DNA from: Escherichia phage Bp7
Length of the DNA: 64,000 nucleotides
Strand: one strand, 5' to 3'
Sequence record: NC_019500.1
Made by a program: the position numbers and the translations under genes. Positions 5,891 to 62,718 of this stretch are shown here, piece after piece. The notes under the pieces were generated by a model. That model ran no database searches and was not told where the DNA came from. It saw nothing but the letters and a program-made list of their open reading frames with translations. Numbering within the stretch: the first letter of the stretch is position 1; each line of letters opens with the position of its first letter.

Positions 5891-5920
5891 GTTTACATAC
5901 GCCATGGATGGTGTTACTAT
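5891..5920 (+). promoter_or_regulatory. T4-type early promoter (-35 GTTTAC, -10 TACTAT) with conserved leader ...ctatcaactaatgaggag
   Basis: GTTTAC 5891-5896, TACTAT 5915-5920. Confidence 0.55.
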
Positions 5921-6305: not shown

Positions 6306-6358
6306 GTATACATCTCCATTAATCATGATATTATAGACCTATCAACTAATGGAGATGA
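6306..6358 (+). promoter_or_regulatory. PeSL-like early promoter inside an 11-bp perfect inverted repeat that includes the SD of the downstream ORF
   Basis: -35 GTATAC 6306-6311, -10 TATTAT 6329-6334; arms catctccatta (6311-6321) and taatggagatg (6348-6358). Confidence 0.5.
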
Positions 6359-6360
6359 TT

Positions 6361-6480
6361 ATGAAAAACTTACTTAAAGCAATTTGGAACATGTTTGTGT
6401 TGTTAATGGTATTGAGCATTTTCCCAATCGTTTTTATGATTGACCATGTACGTGTATTCTTTAACTTCTGAGGAAAATAT
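6361..6480 (+). CDS. small hydrophobic membrane peptide (39 aa)
   Basis: MKNLLKAIWNMFVLLMVLSIFPIVFMIDHVRVFFNF; SD ggag 3 nt upstream. Confidence 0.35.
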
Positions 6481-7049: not shown

Positions 7050-7085
7050 TTTACAACCTCGAGAATCATGTTATAATGGTTCTCG
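7049..7085 (+). promoter_or_regulatory. T4-type early promoter (-35 GTTTAC, -10 TATAAT) with flanking 6-bp inverted repeat cgagaa/ttctcg
   Basis: GTTTAC 7049-7054, TATAAT 7072-7077, 17-bp spacer. Confidence 0.6.
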
Positions 7086-9481: not shown

Positions 9482-9715
9482 GTGAAATGGAGATACAAAA
9501 TGAACAAGATGAAAAATACCCAAAACGCTACCGTCCGTTTCGGTAAAGTTAAACCTGGCATGAATGCTAAACGTAAAGAACTAGTTGAAAAACTAAATTG
9601 GTTGGAAGTAGAGATAAATTCCTTAGTAGTTCGCGGCTCTAATGGTCGTGAACTGGAAAAACTCCGTGAAGGAAAAGCTGCTTTAATCGCCGAGATTAAA
9701 GACCTATCAATCTAA
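9482..9715 (+). CDS. hypothetical small basic protein (start 9482, 9500 or 9509)
   Basis: 77-aa ORF downstream of early promoter. Confidence 0.4.
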   Translation: MKWRYKMNKMKNTQNATVRFGKVKPGMNAKRKELVEKLNWLEVEINSLVVRGSNGRELEKLREGKAALIAEIKDLSI

Positions 9716-22100: not shown

Positions 22101-23152
22101 ACGACATCACCCTGGGCTACGCCTGTAGGTAATGTGATATTAATCGTCTGCGGCGTTGTATTATTAGGACCAAAAACAATAATACTTTCGTTAGCCAAGA
22201 GTTCAACATCATCGCGAATTACACGTAAACGGGTTTTAAGGTCACCGTCCCAAACATACCATAATTTTTCGGTAGAGTTATAAACAAAGAATCCATCACC
22301 GGAGGTACGGAATTCCATGCTATGCTGTCCGGGTTTACCTAATGCAGACGAAGCATCAAACGTTTCAACGATTAAATGGAATTTACTTCCTAAACCATCG
22401 ATATCAGCGGTTTTAATAATATCGCCTTGGTTCGCATACTTAGGAAGAGTAAACTTAATTACTGCACCTGAAGTATAACGACGGAGGATGTTATCACCAG
22501 CTTGAGCTTGGAACTGGGCGGTGTTAGGTTCTACACGGATACCACGTTCTTCGTTACCTGATTCCCAGAAATGCCATAAACGGTTGGCAAAGATAATCAT
22601 ATTATAGGAAAAAGGCTTCGTAATTAAGGTCTCAGTGAACTGGTTACCGAAACGGACAATTTTCTGGTTACCACCGCCCGGAGCAGAACTAGACTGAACC
22701 TTGATTTCATTATAACCAACACGTCCACCGATATCTTTAATTACAACGGTATCGCCATCTGTAGGGTTAGGAGGCAGGGTAAATGTAGTAAAGCTAGCAG
22801 CAGAATCCACTGCAATATATTCACCAGAAGCCAGTTGGCGTGTAGGAGATGCTACGGTAATCCATTTAGGGTCAGTACGGGTAGCAGTCCAATAACCAGG
22901 TACAAAGGTTCCTGCTGGAGCATTGATATCACGTTGAGCAACCCAGATACGTTGGTCATGGATTACGGCAAACCCTTTCTTATATCCGCGCGTCTCGTCG
23001 TACGCCTGGATGGTGTTCTCATCTATAAAGAATTCAACGTTGACGCCGTCGTCTAATACATTGTAATCGGCTTTGGCAACATTGATAACTTTCTCGCCTG
23101 CAGCATCGAGTCCGGATGTAGCACGGAAGGCAGGTTTTAAAATATCGGCCAT
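19103..23152 (-). CDS. 34: long tail fibre proximal subunit gp34
   Basis: 1349 aa with internal repeats (ATQ.E...GT....AVTP..L), adjacent and opposite to rnh as in T4. Confidence 0.85.
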   Translation of the reverse strand: MADILKPAFRATSGLDAAGEKVINVAKADYNVLDDGVNVEFFIDENTIQAYDETRGYKKGFAVIHDQRIWVAQRDINAPAGTFVPGYWTATRTDPKWITVASPTRQLASGEYIAVDSAASFTTFTLPPNPTDGDTVVIKDIGGRVGYNEIKVQSSSAPGGGNQKIVRFGNQFTETLITKPFSYNMIIFANRLWHFWESGNEERGIRVEPNTAQFQAQAGDNILRRYTSGAVIKFTLPKYANQGDIIKTADIDGLGSKFHLIVETFDASSALGKPGQHSMEFRTSGDGFFVYNSTEKLWYVWDGDLKTRLRVIRDDVELLANESIIVFGPNNTTPQTINITLPTGVAQGDVVKIALNYLRKAQTVNIKAAVGYKIASSVQLLQFPKRSEYPPDTEWVLNDVLTFNGDISYTPVIELSYIEDTTTGGKYWVVAQNVPTIERVDSKDDLTRARLGVIALASQTQANVDHENNPEKELAITPQTLANRVATESRRGIARIATTAQVNQDTTFAFQDDLIISPKKLNERTATETRRGVAEIATQVETNTGTDDTTIITPKKLQARQGSESLSGIVTYTSTVGTTPATARDTVGTNVYNKNVGNLVISPKALDQYKATQVQQGTVYLSNQSEVNAGQTASGFANSAVSPETLHARVALDTRTGLIEIATQTETDTGTDYTRAVTPKTLNDRKATERLTGIARIATQVEFDAGVLDNVISTPLKIKTRFNDTARTSVSAASGLVESGTLWNHYTLDIREANETQRGTARLATQTEVNVGTDDKTIVTPLKLHSKKSTESSEGIIRVATNTETTAGTSKVLAVSPSGLKYVVQTETTWEATALRRGFVKLTEGALTYSGNKVTGSGVKFNSGTGLYENDDTVLNAANYPKTGYAVSSYEMNKTLQNFLPINATAVNSEKLDGLDSLQFIRRDVDQTVNGSLTLTKQLNLAAPLVSSSTANITGNTILGSLEVTGNSTFKNDVSVSSGKSIKFVGPQSGAGTWNSQGDTLAPIFAEINSTPDAKFHPIVKQRLGQGTFSLGTVNDGTRDFKIHYLPSPGSLESFYWTFNTTGDFAVNSGSISISKNANITGTTTSNGVSTTTLNASALSSLQNVTTSGTIVSTGQVSANNGLVAQKYVRSVGVKPTLASQAPTAETVGFWSVDINDSATFNLFPGYWTMKTKRQVNIDTVQTKPAGVSDEIWNASGWLTETGAFSSPAIRYRNEDGSFGDEVLSTTGQKLRGTWFDYSVRDKEVKYPGTLTQFGNTLDSCYQDWVCYPTGLNGGTIRYTRTWQKNKNAWTTFSMVYTADNPPSAEEVGALPADNATMGNITILDWLRIGNVRIIPDPVTKSVKFEWIE

Positions 23153-23199: not shown

Positions 23200-23229
23200 G
23201 TTTACTTCCTTAAAACCCATGATATAATG
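23200..23229 (+). promoter_or_regulatory. T4-type early promoter for rnh (-35 GTTTAC, -10 TATAAT)
   Basis: GTTTAC 23200-23205, TATAAT 23224-23229. Confidence 0.55.
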
Positions 23230-23259
23230 GACCTCTCAACTACTTGAACAGAGGTTCAT

Positions 23260-24207
23260 ATGAACGATTTAGATTTTTTACTTCCTGAAGAAGACCAACA
23301 AAAAGATGGATTTTTACTCCTAGATTTCAGCCAAATCATTATGGCGGCGGCTTTCCAAGAGTTTGGTGAGAATGCTGGATTTCCTAAAGTAACTACCGCA
23401 ATGCTTCGACACCTCGTGTTGAATTCAATTAAGAAAAACATTAAAGACTTCCGTAAACAAGGTTACAACCAATTAATTATTTGTGTTGATAACTCCAAAT
23501 CAGGTTATTGGCGTCGTCGTTATTCTTCTTATTATAAGAAAAACCGTGCTAAGGCTCGTGACGAATCACCATTTGATTGGGAAGGTTTATTCACAGCAAT
23601 GCATATTATTGTTGATGAACTGGAACAAAACATGCCTTATATTGTTATGAATATCGATACAATCGAAGCTGACGACCATATTGCTGTTTTAACCCGAATC
23701 CTTACGGCTTTAGGCCACCCTGTTATGATTGGTTCTTCTGATGGTGACTTTACCCAACTTCATAAATTCCCTGGTGTAAAACAATGGTCCCCAATGCAGA
23801 AAAAATTCGTCAAAACAAAATCTGGTGATGCATTGCTTGATTGCGTGACTAAGGTTGTTAAAGGTGACCGTAAAGATAACGTCGCGAGTATTAAAGTTCG
23901 TGGTGATTATTGGTTGACCATGGTTGAAGGCGAGCGTACTCCTAGCACTCGTGCCAAGGAACTTGAAGCAATTGCTCTTAATTATTATGACCATGATATA
24001 ATTAAAACACTTCTTACTGAAGAACAATATGAACGTTTCTGTGAAAACCAAATCTTAATTGATATGGACTTTATTCCGGATGATATTGTTGCTTTAATTA
24101 CTGAAAGATATAATACGTATAACAAACCTTCGAAATCTAAAGTTTATCCTTATTTCGTTAAATCGGGTTTGTCTAAACTAACCGCTACAGTAGCTGATTT
24201 TTATTAA
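23260..24207 (+). CDS. rnh: RNase H (5'-3' exonuclease/flap endonuclease)
   Basis: 315 aa; LNSIK, CVDN.KSGYWRR..YYKKNR, EADDHIAVL, SSDGDFTQLHK, KDNVASIKVR match T4 RNase H. Confidence 0.9.
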   Translation: MNDLDFLLPEEDQQKDGFLLLDFSQIIMAAAFQEFGENAGFPKVTTAMLRHLVLNSIKKNIKDFRKQGYNQLIICVDNSKSGYWRRRYSSYYKKNRAKARDESPFDWEGLFTAMHIIVDELEQNMPYIVMNIDTIEADDHIAVLTRILTALGHPVMIGSSDGDFTQLHKFPGVKQWSPMQKKFVKTKSGDALLDCVTKVVKGDRKDNVASIKVRGDYWLTMVEGERTPSTRAKELEAIALNYYDHDIIKTLLTEEQYERFCENQILIDMDFIPDDIVALITERYNTYNKPSKSKVYPYFVKSGLSKLTATVADFY

Positions 24208-28089: not shown

Positions 28090-28123
28090 GTTTACACCAG
28101 GCTATGGTAGTGATACTATAGCC
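28090..28123 (+). promoter_or_regulatory. T4-type early promoter with 7-bp inverted repeat aggctat/atagcct around the -10
   Basis: GTTTAC 28090-28095, TACTAT 28114-28119. Confidence 0.55.
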
Positions 28124-28144
28124 TTATCAACTAAGGAGAATAAA

Positions 28145-34830: not shown

Positions 34831-35268
34831 ATGGGGCTTCGGCCCCTTATTGCTATGAAAGAAATCGCAGACGAATTTAGCTTTATCAAGTACGTCACCC
34901 TAGAACTCCAAGATGACGCCACCATAGCTCCACTCACAGTACCAAATAAACAAAATGTCATATATGCTATAGCGGTTGATGATATACTAGTCTACGTTGG
35001 GAAGACTAAAAATCTTCGTAAGCGCATCAACTACTACCGAACCGCTATTAATCGTAAGGACCAAACGTCGGATTCGACTAAGTCCATTCTGATTCATGAA
35101 GCATTAATGGCTGGTAAAAAGGTAGAGTTCTATGCACGGCAGTGCTTTAATCTGTCGATGACTAACGAACTTGGAACTATGTCAGTTGAGACCATGTCTC
35201 TTGAAGAGCCAATGTTCATAAAGAAATTTAATCCACCTTGGAATACCCAACACCGATTAAAAGGATAA
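34831..35268 (+). CDS. denA: endonuclease II (GIY-YIG family); start 34831 or ATG 34855
   Basis: 145-aa ORF with GIY-YIG-like core VIYAIAVDDILVYVGKT...RKRINYY; position between nrdB and rnlA. Confidence 0.7.
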   Translation: MGLRPLIAMKEIADEFSFIKYVTLELQDDATIAPLTVPNKQNVIYAIAVDDILVYVGKTKNLRKRINYYRTAINRKDQTSDSTKSILIHEALMAGKKVEFYARQCFNLSMTNELGTMSVETMSLEEPMFIKKFNPPWNTQHRLKG

Positions 35269-35272
35269 AGCA

Positions 35273-36421
35273 ATGATTGAATTATATGATAACTTGATGG
35301 CCCTGGTTAAAAACTCGACTAAATCTAAGTTCTTCTTTAAAGACTTTCAGAGTGCGCTAGGAGTCAACTATCGCATCTTTAGTTATAACTATGCCTCGTA
35401 CAGTGATTGGTTGGAAGACGGCGCGCTAGAGGGCCGAGGCATTATGTTTGAAATGGACGAGAACGGTCCAGTACGTATTGCTGCTCGTCCTATGCAAAAG
35501 TTCTTTAACCTTGACGAAAACCCTCTGACCATCGGTCTAGATTTGTCACCAGAAAATATTGACCTCGTAATGGCTAAGGAAGATGGTTCTCTGATTTCTA
35601 CATTCATGGACCGACAGTATCTTTCTGTTAAATCTAAAGGCTCTATCCATTCATCAATGGTGCATGATTCTTTACGGTTCCTTCGTCTCCCTGAGAACGA
35701 GGCTTTTGCCGCACGTCTAGAAGAAATCACCAAAGCTGGGTATACCTGCAACCTTGAATATGTAGCACCTACCAACCGTATCGTTCTGGCTTACCAAGAA
35801 ACAAACCTCATCCTGTTGAACGTTCGTAATAATGAAACAGGTGAATATATTCCGTATGCTGAATTGTTTAAAGATGGTGCCCTGCGTAAGCATTTGGTTG
35901 AAAGCTATGACCTCGCTGAAGGTGATTTCGTAGAAAACATCCGTAAACAAGAAGGTATTGAAGGTTTCATCTTTGTACTGAAAGATGGTACGTTCTTTAA
36001 ACTCAAAACCGCCTGGTACAGTGCACTGCACCATACCAAAGATTCCATTAACAATAACGAACGTTTGTTTGAAGTTGTAGTGGCTGGTGGAACTGATGAC
36101 CTTCGTGGATTGTTCAGTACAGATTCGTTTGCTATCGAGAAAATCGATGCCTTTGAACGTATCCATTTAGATTACTTAGAACAATCATTAGCCTTGTTAG
36201 AAGCAGCGTACTCCCAACTTAAGGGTCGCGACCGTAAGGACTACGCCGTTACTGGTCAACTAATCCTTAAGGACTTTCCAGGGTTGTTCTCTATTCTTAT
36301 GCAGGCGTACGTAGGCGGCATTAATTATGATACGGTCATGGACCAGATTAACTCTGTGTTCTTGAAAAACCATAAAGCCCAAATCCCTGAAAAATATTTG
36401 AAAGAAATTGTGGTAGAGTAG
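35273..36421 (+). CDS. rnlA: RNA ligase 1
   Basis: 382 aa; YRIFSYNYASYSDW, GIMFEMD, RPM.KFFNL.ENP, FVAPTNRIVLAYQE, LLNVRNNETGEYI match T4 Rnl1 (gp63). Confidence 0.9.
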   Translation: MIELYDNLMALVKNSTKSKFFFKDFQSALGVNYRIFSYNYASYSDWLEDGALEGRGIMFEMDENGPVRIAARPMQKFFNLDENPLTIGLDLSPENIDLVMAKEDGSLISTFMDRQYLSVKSKGSIHSSMVHDSLRFLRLPENEAFAARLEEITKAGYTCNLEYVAPTNRIVLAYQETNLILLNVRNNETGEYIPYAELFKDGALRKHLVESYDLAEGDFVENIRKQEGIEGFIFVLKDGTFFKLKTAWYSALHHTKDSINNNERLFEVVVAGGTDDLRGLFSTDSFAIEKIDAFERIHLDYLEQSLALLEAAYSQLKGRDRKDYAVTGQLILKDFPGLFSILMQAYVGGINYDTVMDQINSVFLKNHKAQIPEKYLKEIVVE

Positions 36422-36473
36422 TTTACATCTCCTCATGATGTGTTAGTATAGACTTACCAACTAATGAGGAGAA
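36421..36473 (+). promoter_or_regulatory. PeSL-like early promoter with 9-bp inverted repeat tctcctcat/atgaggaga that includes the alc SD
   Basis: GTTTAC 36421-36426, TAGTAT 36444-36449; arms 36428-36436 and 36465-36473. Confidence 0.55.
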
Positions 36474-36479
36474 AACAAA

Positions 36480-36980
36480 ATGAATATGCAAATGATTACT
36501 AACGAAATGGTTGTTAAGGCTTTTGGTGACTCTACCGACGGTATCCAAGTTTTTAAAGGTTCTCGTGCAGTAGGTTACCTGACCGATCTTCGTGTTACTT
36601 TAGCTAAAAATGCTAAAAAGAAAATCAAGCAAAAAGAATACTCTACCCGTTACGCTGAAGAAAAGCGTGAAGCCATGCCCGAAGCTGTTAACTCTATGGT
36701 TGAGTTTCTCCGAAACAACCTTTCCAAGTATGATGCTGAGGTGTTCATTAATATTAGCCAACCTAATGTTAAAATCTCAGGCATCACTTTCTATTTGATT
36801 TGTGACCCATTAAGCGACAAGTTTAATCGCCTTGGCATTTCAAGTCCTTACCATACCGCTGAAGAATTGTGTTTTATGTTCGAAACGTACAAAATTCAGT
36901 GCGAAAATCCTAAAACGGTTCTTATTAATTCCCTGTCACGTGATGACATCATCGAGATTATTACCAAATGTCTAAATTAA
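36480..36980 (+). CDS. alc: probable Alc (transcription-unfolding protein); assignment by synteny and size only
   Basis: 166 aa (T4 Alc 167 aa) between rnlA and the spanin pair. Confidence 0.45.
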   Translation: MNMQMITNEMVVKAFGDSTDGIQVFKGSRAVGYLTDLRVTLAKNAKKKIKQKEYSTRYAEEKREAMPEAVNSMVEFLRNNLSKYDAEVFINISQPNVKISGITFYLICDPLSDKFNRLGISSPYHTAEELCFMFETYKIQCENPKTVLINSLSRDDIIEIITKCLN

Positions 36981-37321: not shown

Positions 37322-37608
37322 TTAAATTATCTGTGGTAGTATTATCTATTGGCTTGTTAGTTGGATGTGCCCAGGATATCCCTGTAGTGCCTAAGCAACA
37401 GCTGCATCCTTCATGGCCACAACCTATTGCCGAACATAATGTTAAATGGCAGGTTAAGGTAATCGATGGTAAAGCTTGGGTTGGAATGCCTTTCGAAGAC
37501 TCCCAAGAACATCGTATTTGGTTGAATGACGTAAAAAGATATGTACAAGACCAGAAATCTATGTTATGTTATTATCGTTCTGGACTAAAAGAGGAGAAGT
37601 GCAAATGA
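37318..37608 (+). CDS. o-spanin lipoprotein (Rz1-like; pseT.2 position)
   Basis: signal peptide with lipobox LLVGC, Pro-rich mature region; overlaps i-spanin stop. Confidence 0.6.
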   Translation: MIKLSVVVLSIGLLVGCAQDIPVVPKQQLHPSWPQPIAEHNVKWQVKVIDGKAWVGMPFEDSQEHRIWLNDVKRYVQDQKSMLCYYRSGLKEEKCK

Positions 37609-37712: not shown

Positions 37713-37746
37713 TTTACAAACTCTTGGGAGCAGAGTATAATGCTCC
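37712..37746 (+). promoter_or_regulatory. T4-type early promoter with 6-bp inverted repeat ggagca/tgctcc around the -10
   Basis: GTTTAC 37712-37717, TATAAT 37736-37741. Confidence 0.55.
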
Positions 37747-37775
37747 TACGGATTATAAAAATTGAGGAAATTATT

Positions 37776-39677: not shown

Positions 39678-39716
39678 GTTTACACTATGGTAGGACTGTG
39701 GTATAGTAGTCCTACC
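39678..39716 (+). promoter_or_regulatory. PeSL-like early promoter with 9-bp perfect inverted repeat ggtaggact/agtcctacc around the -10
   Basis: GTTTAC 39678-39683, TATAGT 39702-39707; arms 39689-39697 and 39708-39716. Confidence 0.55.
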
Positions 39717-42804: not shown

Positions 42805-42808
42805 TTAT

Positions 42809-42833
42809 GGGACTCTTCGGAGTCCCATTTTTG
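42809..42833 (+). terminator. rho-independent terminator (GGGACUC-UUCG-GAGUCCC then T-run)
   Basis: perfect 7-bp stem, UUCG loop, TTTTTG. Confidence 0.65.
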
Positions 42834-42854
42834 TTTCTAAATCTTTAAAAAAGG

Positions 42855-42883
42855 GTGTACATCTCCGGTAGGCATGATACTAT
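42855..42883 (+). promoter_or_regulatory. T4-type early promoter (-35 GTGTAC, -10 TACTAT) followed by duplicated 45-nt leader
   Basis: GTGTAC 42855-42860, TACTAT 42878-42883. Confidence 0.5.
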
Positions 42884-42924
42884 AGACATGTACCAAATAA
42901 TACGAAAACAAACTGGAGAATAAA

Positions 42925-43257
42925 ATGAAAACTGTAAATCTGAATGCATCTGTTAAAGCTAAATGTTTCAACGGTGAATATCAAGAAACCATGTGGGTCC
43001 TGACTGCAGTTGAAGGTGATATCATCGAAGTTGAAACAACTGAAGGTATGGGTACTGATTTTACATTCACCATCGAGCTTCACAACTTCTTTACAGGTTG
43101 GATTTATGAACTGAAAACTGTAATTACTGGTCGTATTGAAGAAAACAAAAATGGTGAATTCTATTATGTTAATGCCCGTACACGTGCTGAACGTCTGATT
43201 GCTCAGATGAAAAAAGTTGGTAAACTTGATATGAAAAATTGGAATGTTGTGAAATAA
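42925..43257 (+). CDS. hypothetical protein (110 aa)
   Basis: ATG after SD ggagaa in duplicated leader. Confidence 0.5.
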   Translation: MKTVNLNASVKAKCFNGEYQETMWVLTAVEGDIIEVETTEGMGTDFTFTIELHNFFTGWIYELKTVITGRIEENKNGEFYYVNARTRAERLIAQMKKVGKLDMKNWNVVK

Positions 43258-43260
43258 ATG

Positions 43261-43300
43261 TTTTACTTTGGTACAGGTTGTGTTATTATAGACCTGTACC
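43261..43300 (+). promoter_or_regulatory. PeSL-like early promoter with 8-bp perfect inverted repeat ggtacagg/cctgtacc around the -10
   Basis: -35 TTTTAC 43261-43266, -10 TATTAT 43284-43289; arms 43270-43277 and 43293-43300. Confidence 0.5.
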
Positions 43301-43330
43301 AAATAATACGAAAACAAACTGGAGAATAAA

Positions 43331-43696
43331 ATGAACTACATCAACTTCGAACGTAAATATGTTTCTAACGGTATCGCTGGTTCTTCTGAAGTTATTTGCC
43401 TGTGGAAACACAACAACGGCGCGGTGTGCGAAATCGAACAGTGCATGACTCCTAACTACGTTTATATGCGCTTTGAAAATGGTATTACGGTTTCAATCAC
43501 AATGGAAGGTTCTACTTTTAAAATCGCTTTAGATGATGATTTCCGTCAACGTGATTTAGGTACCCATCCTTGCTGGAACGGTTCTAATCGTAAGCTTCTG
43601 GTTAAAACCTGGATTCGTCACATCCTGAGCAACCGAGCTAAACCTGAACACCTGGAAGCAATCTTTGATGTAGTTCTGAATGAATTCGATATCTAA
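43331..43696 (+). CDS. hypothetical protein (121 aa)
   Basis: ATG after second copy of the duplicated leader. Confidence 0.5.
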   Translation: MNYINFERKYVSNGIAGSSEVICLWKHNNGAVCEIEQCMTPNYVYMRFENGITVSITMEGSTFKIALDDDFRQRDLGTHPCWNGSNRKLLVKTWIRHILSNRAKPEHLEAIFDVVLNEFDI

Positions 43697-47523: not shown

Positions 47524-47540
47524 AGGCCTTCGGGCCTTTT
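47524..47540 (+). terminator. rho-independent terminator (AGGCC-UUCG-GGCCU then TTTT)
   Basis: UUCG-loop hairpin plus T-run. Confidence 0.6.
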
Positions 47541-47574
47541 CTGGCATAAATAAGGTTATTAAAGAGGAATTATT

Positions 47575-62696: not shown

Positions 62697-62704
62697 TATA
62701 AATA
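62697..62704 (+). promoter_or_regulatory. T4 late promoter TATAAATA for inh
   Basis: TATAAATA 34 nt upstream of ATG 62738. Confidence 0.55.
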
Positions 62705-62710
62705 TAGTTA

Positions 62711-62718
62711 TATTTATA
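62711..62718 (-). promoter_or_regulatory. T4 late promoter TATAAATA for uvsW
   Basis: plus-strand tatttata = minus-strand TATAAATA, about 29 nt upstream of uvsW ATG. Confidence 0.55.

Follow-up and report, generated by a model that had tools for sequence, protein, structure and literature searches.

Early-promoter spacers complementary to the Shine-Dalgarno sequence in Escherichia phage Bp7: a probable translation-gating subclass of PeSL cassettes

Introduction

Which transcripts of a phage early gene can be translated when its promoter lies inside a hairpin that also contains the Shine-Dalgarno (SD) sequence? Two sites in Escherichia phage Bp7 raise this question; both lie within the 64,000 nt of record NC_019500.1 that were analyzed here (the window). 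A preliminary description of the window proposed that the SD is hidden in RNA reading in from upstream and open in RNA started at the embedded promoter, and compared this with the T4 genes e and I-TevI. In T4 e, soc, 49 and I-TevI the SD is masked in long transcripts and a promoter lies inside the hairpin, the embedded promoters being late ones (PMC3014915).

The two sites also belong to cassettes that have been described before, which the preliminary description did not recognize. These promoter-early stem-loop (PeSL) cassettes were reported in RB49/phi1 by Arbiol et al. 2010 (PMC2839356) and then in T4/PST and KVP40/nt-1 by Comeau et al. 2014 (PMC4122927), with the T4 ndd.4/ndd.5 region among the published examples. 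Both studies read the stems as terminators and recombination sites, and they place the stem-loop at five positions: upstream of the −35, over the −35, between the boxes, over the −10, or just before the start site (PMC2839356, PMC4122927). The word “translation” does not occur in the 2014 paper (PMC4122927).

Results

Two early promoters are embedded in hairpins that contain the SD

Site 1 is located in the rIIB-denB-ndd variable region and site 2 between rnlA (gene 63) and alc. The DNA around the sites is 96–98% identical to Dhakavirus-type T4-like coliphages such as LQ5, WG01 and QL01. The features of both, and of a third site treated below, are:

5892..5920, + strand: early promoter upstream of site 1 (promoter scan)
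6307..6312, + strand: −35 hexamer TATACA of the ndd.4 early promoter (TTTACA or TGTACA in close relatives)
6311..6321, + strand: 5′ arm CATCTCCATTA, within the ndd.4 promoter spacer, present only in read-through RNA
6326..6334, + strand: ndd.4 extended −10 TG-A-TATTAT, in the hairpin loop (TG 6326–6327, TATTAT 6329–6334)
6347..6357, + strand: 3′ arm TAATGGAGATG including the SD GGAG (6351–6354)
6361..6471, + strand: gene of an ndd.4-like inner-membrane peptide, 36 aa (annotated Ndd.4 in the near-identical phage WG01)
36422..36427, + strand: −35 hexamer TTTACA of the alc early promoter, adjoining the rnlA stop codon (36419–36421)
36428..36436, + strand: 5′ arm TCTCCTCAT, within the alc promoter spacer (inverted-repeat search)
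36441..36449, + strand: alc extended −10 TG-T-TAGTAT, in the hairpin loop (TAGTAT at 36444–36449)
36464..36472, + strand: 3′ arm ATGAGGAGA including the SD GAGGAG (36466–36471) (inverted-repeat search and folding)
36480..36980, + strand: alc, inhibitor of host transcription, 166 aa (ATG 36480)
42856..42883, + strand: early promoter TGTACA-N16-TACTAT of the gene 30.8 orthologue, with 5′ arm TCTCCGGT at 42862–42869
42912..42919, + strand: 30.8 3′ arm ACTGGAGA, 8 bp including one G-U, carrying the SD (ATG 42925)

The arms at site 1 are 11 nt long, 100% complementary and 25 nt apart, and the repeat at site 2 is perfect over 9 bp. In both cases the arms bracket the −10 element and the 3′ arm lies on the SD, as the preliminary description had stated; the repeats end at 6357 and 36472, not at 6358 and 36473 as given there. 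The same description assigned 39 aa to the open reading frame at 6361, which has 36, and its label as a membrane peptide agrees with the annotation in WG01.

Both promoters have an AT-rich upstream region, a TTTACA-like −35, a 16-nt spacer and a TG-extended −10 (TATACA-N16-TATTAT at site 1, TTTACA-N16-TAGTAT at site 2). They fit the published T4/PST consensus TTTACW-N17-TAYWAT except for the 16-nt spacer and, at site 1, the first base of the −35. The late-promoter box TATAAATA is absent from the loops of both sites, both promoters being of the −35/TG/−10 early type. The analogy drawn to T4 e and I-TevI therefore holds for the layout of the gating hairpin and fails for the embedded promoter, which is a sigma-70 early promoter and not a late one.

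The 5′ arm occupies the first part of the spacer, and the loop contains the −10 together with the predicted start site. Given the usual distance of 7 nt after the −10, transcription is predicted to start at about 6341 and about 36456, 6–8 nt upstream of the 3′ arms. These arms contain GGAG or GAGGAG 6–8 nt ahead of the ATG, with 6 nt between GGAG and ATG 6361 at site 1. Read-through RNA entering site 1 probably comes from the promoter at 5892..5920, and the terminator scan found no terminator-like site between this promoter and 6307, nor between rnlA and alc.

The proximity of upstream reading frames brings in translational coupling, by which the hairpin would silence alc and ndd.4 in long RNA unless opened by a ribosome completing the upstream gene, so that their expression would depend on the translation of that gene. 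At site 2 the rnlA stop codon and the 5′ arm are 6 nt apart, and at site 1 a small upstream open reading frame ends 9 nt before the arm. However, alc lineages differ in the distance from stop to arm (5–11 nt; 10 nt in T4), and the −35 hexamer always lies between stop codon and arm. A ribosome with a stop codon in its A site unwinds RNA about 5 nt beyond that codon, which puts the arms out of its reach, and we consider coupling highly improbable.

The SD is predicted to be paired in read-through RNA and free in promoter-started RNA

In read-through RNA the SD bases of both sites are predicted to be paired with P = 1.0, in agreement with the claim that such RNA hides the SD. The isolated hairpins have predicted free energies of −15.0 (site 1) and −15.6 kcal/mol (site 2). 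Under the same folding, the proven inhibitory structures of T4 gave −10.9 (soc), −17.9 (gene 49) and −20.7 kcal/mol (I-TevI). Both hairpins thus fall inside this range, which answers the reservation in the preliminary description that they might be too weak to matter. Compared with dinucleotide shuffles, the site 1 segment folds at −18.8 against −7.5 ± 2.5 kcal/mol (z −4.5, 0/200) and the site 2 segment at −17.4 against −10.5 ± 2.7 kcal/mol (z −2.6, 0/200). At −1.8 and −2.2 kcal/mol, RNA from the predicted start sites has almost no structure. These starts are located downstream of the 5′ arms and upstream of the 3′ arms, just as expected if promoter-started RNA lacks the 5′ arm.

The hairpins could instead serve a generic PeSL stem-loop role as attenuator or terminator, or as 3′-end stabilizer of the upstream message (Arbiol et al.), with the SD included incidentally. 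One RB49 PeSL stem-loop did lower lacZ expression like a strong terminator (PMC2839356). At sites 1 and 2, however, no U-run follows the 3′ arm (tails ATTATGAAAAAC and AAACAAAATG), the terminator scan gave no match to an intrinsic (Rho-independent) terminator, and loops of 25–27 nt make poor terminator hairpins. Moreover, whatever was selected, enclosing the SD in a helix of −15 kcal/mol must impede the binding of 30S subunits. We regard this generic role as less likely but as a serious rival, and further evidence on both sides of it appears in the comparisons below. A search for Rfam families at the gathering score gave no match anywhere in the window.

Promoters pair preferentially with their own translation start regions

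Counts of inverted repeats over the whole window did not reach significance by themselves: perfect repeats of at least 11 bp numbered 3 against 1.1 ± 1.4 in shuffles, and perfect 9-bp repeats 28 against 14.7. A scoring scan detected 18 early promoters of the same type on the + strand of the window, and these occupy about 1.7% of it. Among the perfect repeats of at least 9 bp (loop up to 40), 4 of 19 loci lie inside these promoters.

We then compared the pairing of the upstream half of each promoter with its own translation start region and with the regions of other promoters. Three promoters of the window stand out, those at 6307, 36422 and 42856, with −16.3, −15.3 and −12.6 kcal/mol; mismatched pairs had a mean of −5.5 ± 2.6 kcal/mol. 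Over 35 promoters from the window and T4, own pairing exceeded swapped pairing with p = 4e-4 to 4e-5 (the T4 set comprised 19 promoters from 105 kb outside T4 50–113 kb). Duplexes of −12 kcal/mol or stronger were found in 6 of the 35 own pairs but in 2.5% of the mismatched ones (permutation p = 4e-5). Averaged over the 18 promoters of the window, pairing with the SD region was not enriched (p = 0.22).

A third gene with predicted SD masking and other early promoters of the window

The promoter at 42856 belongs to an orthologue of gene 30.8 (78% identical to T4 30.8) and adds a third case of SD masking to ndd.4 and alc (arms 42862–42869/42912–42919). Here the SD is paired across a 42-nt loop despite a nearer partner, which speaks against its incidental inclusion in a generic stem-loop. 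A canonical intrinsic terminator (ATGGGACTC-TTCG-GAGTCCCAT followed by TTTTTG) at 42807–42835 precedes the 30.8 promoter, some 20 nt before its AT-rich region, and T4 has a similar GGGAGTCC+TTTTTT at the matching place. Together with the SD mask, this terminator would leave 30.8 doubly guarded against transcription from upstream.

The GGAG in these leaders is also of interest in view of the nuclease RegB. This enzyme cleaves GGAG at early intergenic SD sites when the motif is single-stranded, and secondary structure inhibits it (PMC1702504, PMC3014915). Shielding from RegB could then be the main function, with the hairpin guarding the intercistronic GGAG and so preserving the downstream message. 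The 30.8 SD GGAGAATAAAA matches the T4 RegB/S1 consensus GGAGRAYARAA exactly, but alc (GGAGAAAACAA; 9/11) and ndd.4 (GGAGATGATTA; 7/11) fit it poorly, alc having C at position 9, a base reported never to occur there (PMC1702504). The T4 alc SD, GAGGAC, lacks GGAG altogether. RegB shielding as the main function seems very unlikely. Several early leaders (28128–28144, 42915–42927, 43321–43333) terminate with GGAGAATAAAATG, and the T4 RegB/S1 consensus GGAGAAUAAAA is present in it without mismatch.

Several early promoters of the window share a −10/leader motif, TATAGACYTAYCAACTAATG, with 7 matches against 0.01 expected. Half of the early promoters of the window have a hairpin spanning the start site, a general enrichment (p = 1.5e-4), and most of these hairpins bracket the −10 only. 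Stems bracketing the −10 alone, with the SD free, lie at 7050–7085, 28091–28125, 37542–37585, 37713–37750, 39679–39716 and 43262–43303; examples are GGTAGGACT/AGTCCTACC at 39689–39716 and TTTGGTACAGGT/ACCTGTACCAAA at 43267–43303. These six are classic PeSL stem-loops. Both the overall enrichment and these six promoters favor a generic role of the stem. The stem of gene 30.7 (43262) brackets only the −10 in the window phage and T4 alike.

A different layout was found at the rnh promoter (23201–23262), where the hairpin ACCTCT (23231–23236)/AGAGGT (23250–23255) contains the rnh SD and has its 5′ arm downstream of the −10 but ahead of the predicted start. Since this arm is upstream of the predicted start, transcripts from the rnh promoter itself may lack it. 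The corresponding arms in T4 rnh are AATCTC/GAGGTT, and a similar layout occurs in some alc lineages (L081 type).

Further structures were seen elsewhere in the window. G+C-rich hairpins with TTCG-type loops and T-rich tails at 1066–1087, 34833–34846 and 47524–47545 (GGCCTTCGGGCC, GGGGCTTCGGCCCC, AAAGGCCTTCGGGCCTTT) are probably intrinsic terminators ending transcription units; the first lies immediately upstream of a promoter at 1088. The palindrome TATAAATATAGTTATATTTATA at 62697–62718 contains two T4 late-promoter boxes (TATAAATA) back to back, one per strand.

Predicted masking of the alc SD is maintained by different arms in different genera

Within Dhakavirus we found no covariation, since both arms never vary and the loops alone change. 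Other genera were informative. Pairing between the alc SD and the spacer of its early promoter is seen in Dhakavirus, Tequatrovirus (T4, RB27), Kanagawavirus, Moonvirus, Karamvirus, Bragavirus and Jiaodavirus; Moonvirus and Karamvirus have identical arms, and most of these genera differ from one another in arm sequence. For six genera, own arms paired with a mean of −18.6 versus −9.3 kcal/mol for swapped arms, and the true pairing was the best of 720 permutations.

A survey of viral metagenomes and genomes added 43 further alc loci, giving 35 distinct upstream regions. Some secondary structure was predicted in all 35 (−12 to −30 kcal/mol). The SD pairs with the spacer in 23 of them, while in the other 12 the hairpin lies elsewhere (around the −10 alone, over the −35, or in the interval between the two boxes). 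Different alc lineages carry different cassettes, which fits shuffling. Because 12 of the 35 regions have non-masking hairpins, SD masking is not universal: the promoter hairpin is the universal feature and SD masking a frequent, gene-specific form.

This distribution, structure in 35 of 35 with masking in 23, fits a generic role of the stem, as does the fact that the same leader pairs with the spacer at differing places in different cassettes. On the generic reading, the hairpin reaches the SD only because leaders are short, and in leaders of 20–25 nt a long helix spanning the start site is nearly forced to include the SD.

A plain MAFFT alignment of nine alc leaders with RNAalifold gave no helix, because the arm registers differ between lineages. 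The alc leaders were instead analyzed by the swapped-arm duplex tests, by per-sequence folds indexed by promoter position, and by covariance-model alignment. Helices of 12–20 bp, with free energies from −14.6 to −25.4 kcal/mol, are predicted in 17 distinct leaders. Two-sided changes that preserve the pairing, such as CATTT/AAATG versus CGTTT/AAACG, occur at 17 of 23 promoter positions, which are paired by construction since the best fold of each leader was used. In the covariance-model alignment, the covariation score was 0.279 compared with 0.176 ± 0.015 after shuffling (0/500), and 0.07–0.17 when the partners were slid by 1–3 columns.

Masked and unmasked genes correspond between Bp7 and T4

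The match between T4 and the window phage holds gene by gene: alc, ndd.4 and 30.8 are masked in both and 30.7 in neither. This conservation of masking and non-masking speaks against an incidental inclusion of the SD. The helices themselves differ. For 30.8 the arms are TCTCCGGT/ACTGGAGA in the window phage and TCCTTTGT/ACAAAGGA in T4, and Tequatroviruses mask the ndd.4 SD with another helix, CTGTTCTTCCGTGG/CTACGGAGGAACAG. All four differences in the ndd.4 arms of T4, RB7 and PST from the commonest sequence are switches between G-U and Watson-Crick pairs that keep the pairing, and two metagenome variants lost the outermost pair and no other. T4 has additional masked promoters at alt.-3, mrh.2 and motB.2.

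The complete SD-masking cassette (promoter, arms and SD) is found before unrelated genes of one genome, in T4 before alt.-3 and alc (9525–9600 and 22774–22836 of segment L029) and also in L057 and L063. This repetition fits mobile modules and shuffling.

Such recurrence before different genes, together with the published reading of PeSLs as recombination sites (PMC2839356, PMC4122927), would also suit a role in DNA, as a cruciform or as a site for cassette-shuffling recombination. A chance match is conceivable too, given that a pyrimidine-rich spacer and a purine-rich SD provide 5 bp of complementarity from TCTCC and GGAGA alone. But switches between G-U and Watson-Crick pairs preserve pairing in RNA only, the arms continue 2–6 bp past the TCTCC/GGAGA core, and the permutation and swapped-arm tests oppose chance. 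A DNA-level role or chance therefore seems a very remote prospect.

In the RefSeq annotation of T4 (NC_000866), the start of ndd.4, ATGGAGGAACAG..., falls within the SD (about 166749–166764; L027 3250–3266). T4 relatives have ACGGAGG at this position and share with T4 an ATG 15 nt downstream, so that, judged by the sequences of the relatives, the annotated T4 start is probably five codons too early.

Discussion

From this analysis, ndd.4, alc and 30.8 probably represent an SD-masking subclass of the PeSL early-promoter cassettes, in which the promoter would provide a gate for the translation of its own gene. As a model, the mechanism put forward in the preliminary description is supported by its agreement with the predicted thermodynamics and with the compensatory conservation across genera. 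The repeats, the promoter consensus, the predicted folds and the compensatory conservation are direct results of the analysis, whereas the exact start sites, the in-cell structure of the RNA, the strength of the translational block and its purpose are inferred.

The cassette would consist of a strong sigma-70 promoter with a spacer of 16–17 nt, a leader of 20–40 nt, the SD and the ATG, and the part of the spacer just after the −35 would be complementary to the SD region. A polymerase coming from an upstream promoter would transcribe the spacer, which could pair with the SD once the latter emerges. The resulting hairpin of about −15 kcal/mol would block 30S binding and also conceal the GGAG from RegB, so that, with RegB blocked by structure, long transcripts would be shielded. 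RNA started at the embedded promoter, in turn, would begin within the loop and, with the 5′ arm missing, have an open SD. With the SD open in promoter-started RNA only, ndd.4, alc and 30.8 would depend on their own early promoters for translation. The outcome may be an immediate-early pulse that is unaffected by transcription arriving from early, middle or late promoters upstream.

This arrangement combines traits of two known systems. With T4 e, soc, 49 and I-TevI it shares an SD and/or start codon in a helix of the long RNA and an embedded promoter whose start lies between the arms (both predicted here), transcripts without the 5′ arm, and comparable stabilities. In the T4 genes, however, the embedded promoter is a gp55-dependent late promoter (TATAAATA) and translation is confined to late times, whereas the sites described here have a sigma-70 early promoter whose own −35/−10 spacer supplies the 5′ arm. 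With early instead of late embedded promoters, the time logic is reversed relative to e and I-TevI.

The PeSL traits are the strong early promoter with its AT-rich upstream region, the stem-loop, the SD and ATG at the 3′ end, and an intergenic, mobile occurrence in many copies. Unlike in published PeSLs, the arms lie in the spacer and on the SD; none of the five published positions has an arm on the SD. SD-masking helices are also known from other mRNAs of T4-type phages, namely Aeh1 mobE and T4 segB, I-TevII and I-TevIII (PMC3014915). These are said to limit endonuclease expression, and they do not derive from the spacer of an early promoter. In the literature searched, which did not extend to the older T4 papers, SD masking by the spacer of an early promoter is not described; an earlier mention may exist.

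More tentatively, the compensatory evolution across at least six genera may point to a conserved switch by which alc, ndd.4 and 30.8, as well as alt.-3, mrh.2 and motB.2 of T4, are translated from their own promoters only. If so, many PeSL stem-loops would be translational rather than transcriptional insulators. This would help explain the abrupt stop of early protein synthesis, and also why RegB spares some intergenic GGAG sites in structured transcripts.

Early genes of T4 have many tandem strong promoters and few terminators, so that RNA polymerase reaches most of them from several promoters simultaneously. A hairpin whose 5′ arm is the promoter spacer would make protein output depend on the gene’s own promoter alone and yield a sharp immediate-early pulse. 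It would also render the cassette independent of its surroundings and thereby suited to movement between genomes. The widespread PeSL stem-loops would gain a concrete molecular function, and gating of the lysozyme type would be extended from late to early promoters. As the arrangement is present in T4 itself (alc, ndd.4, 30.8, motB.2), it is directly testable there.
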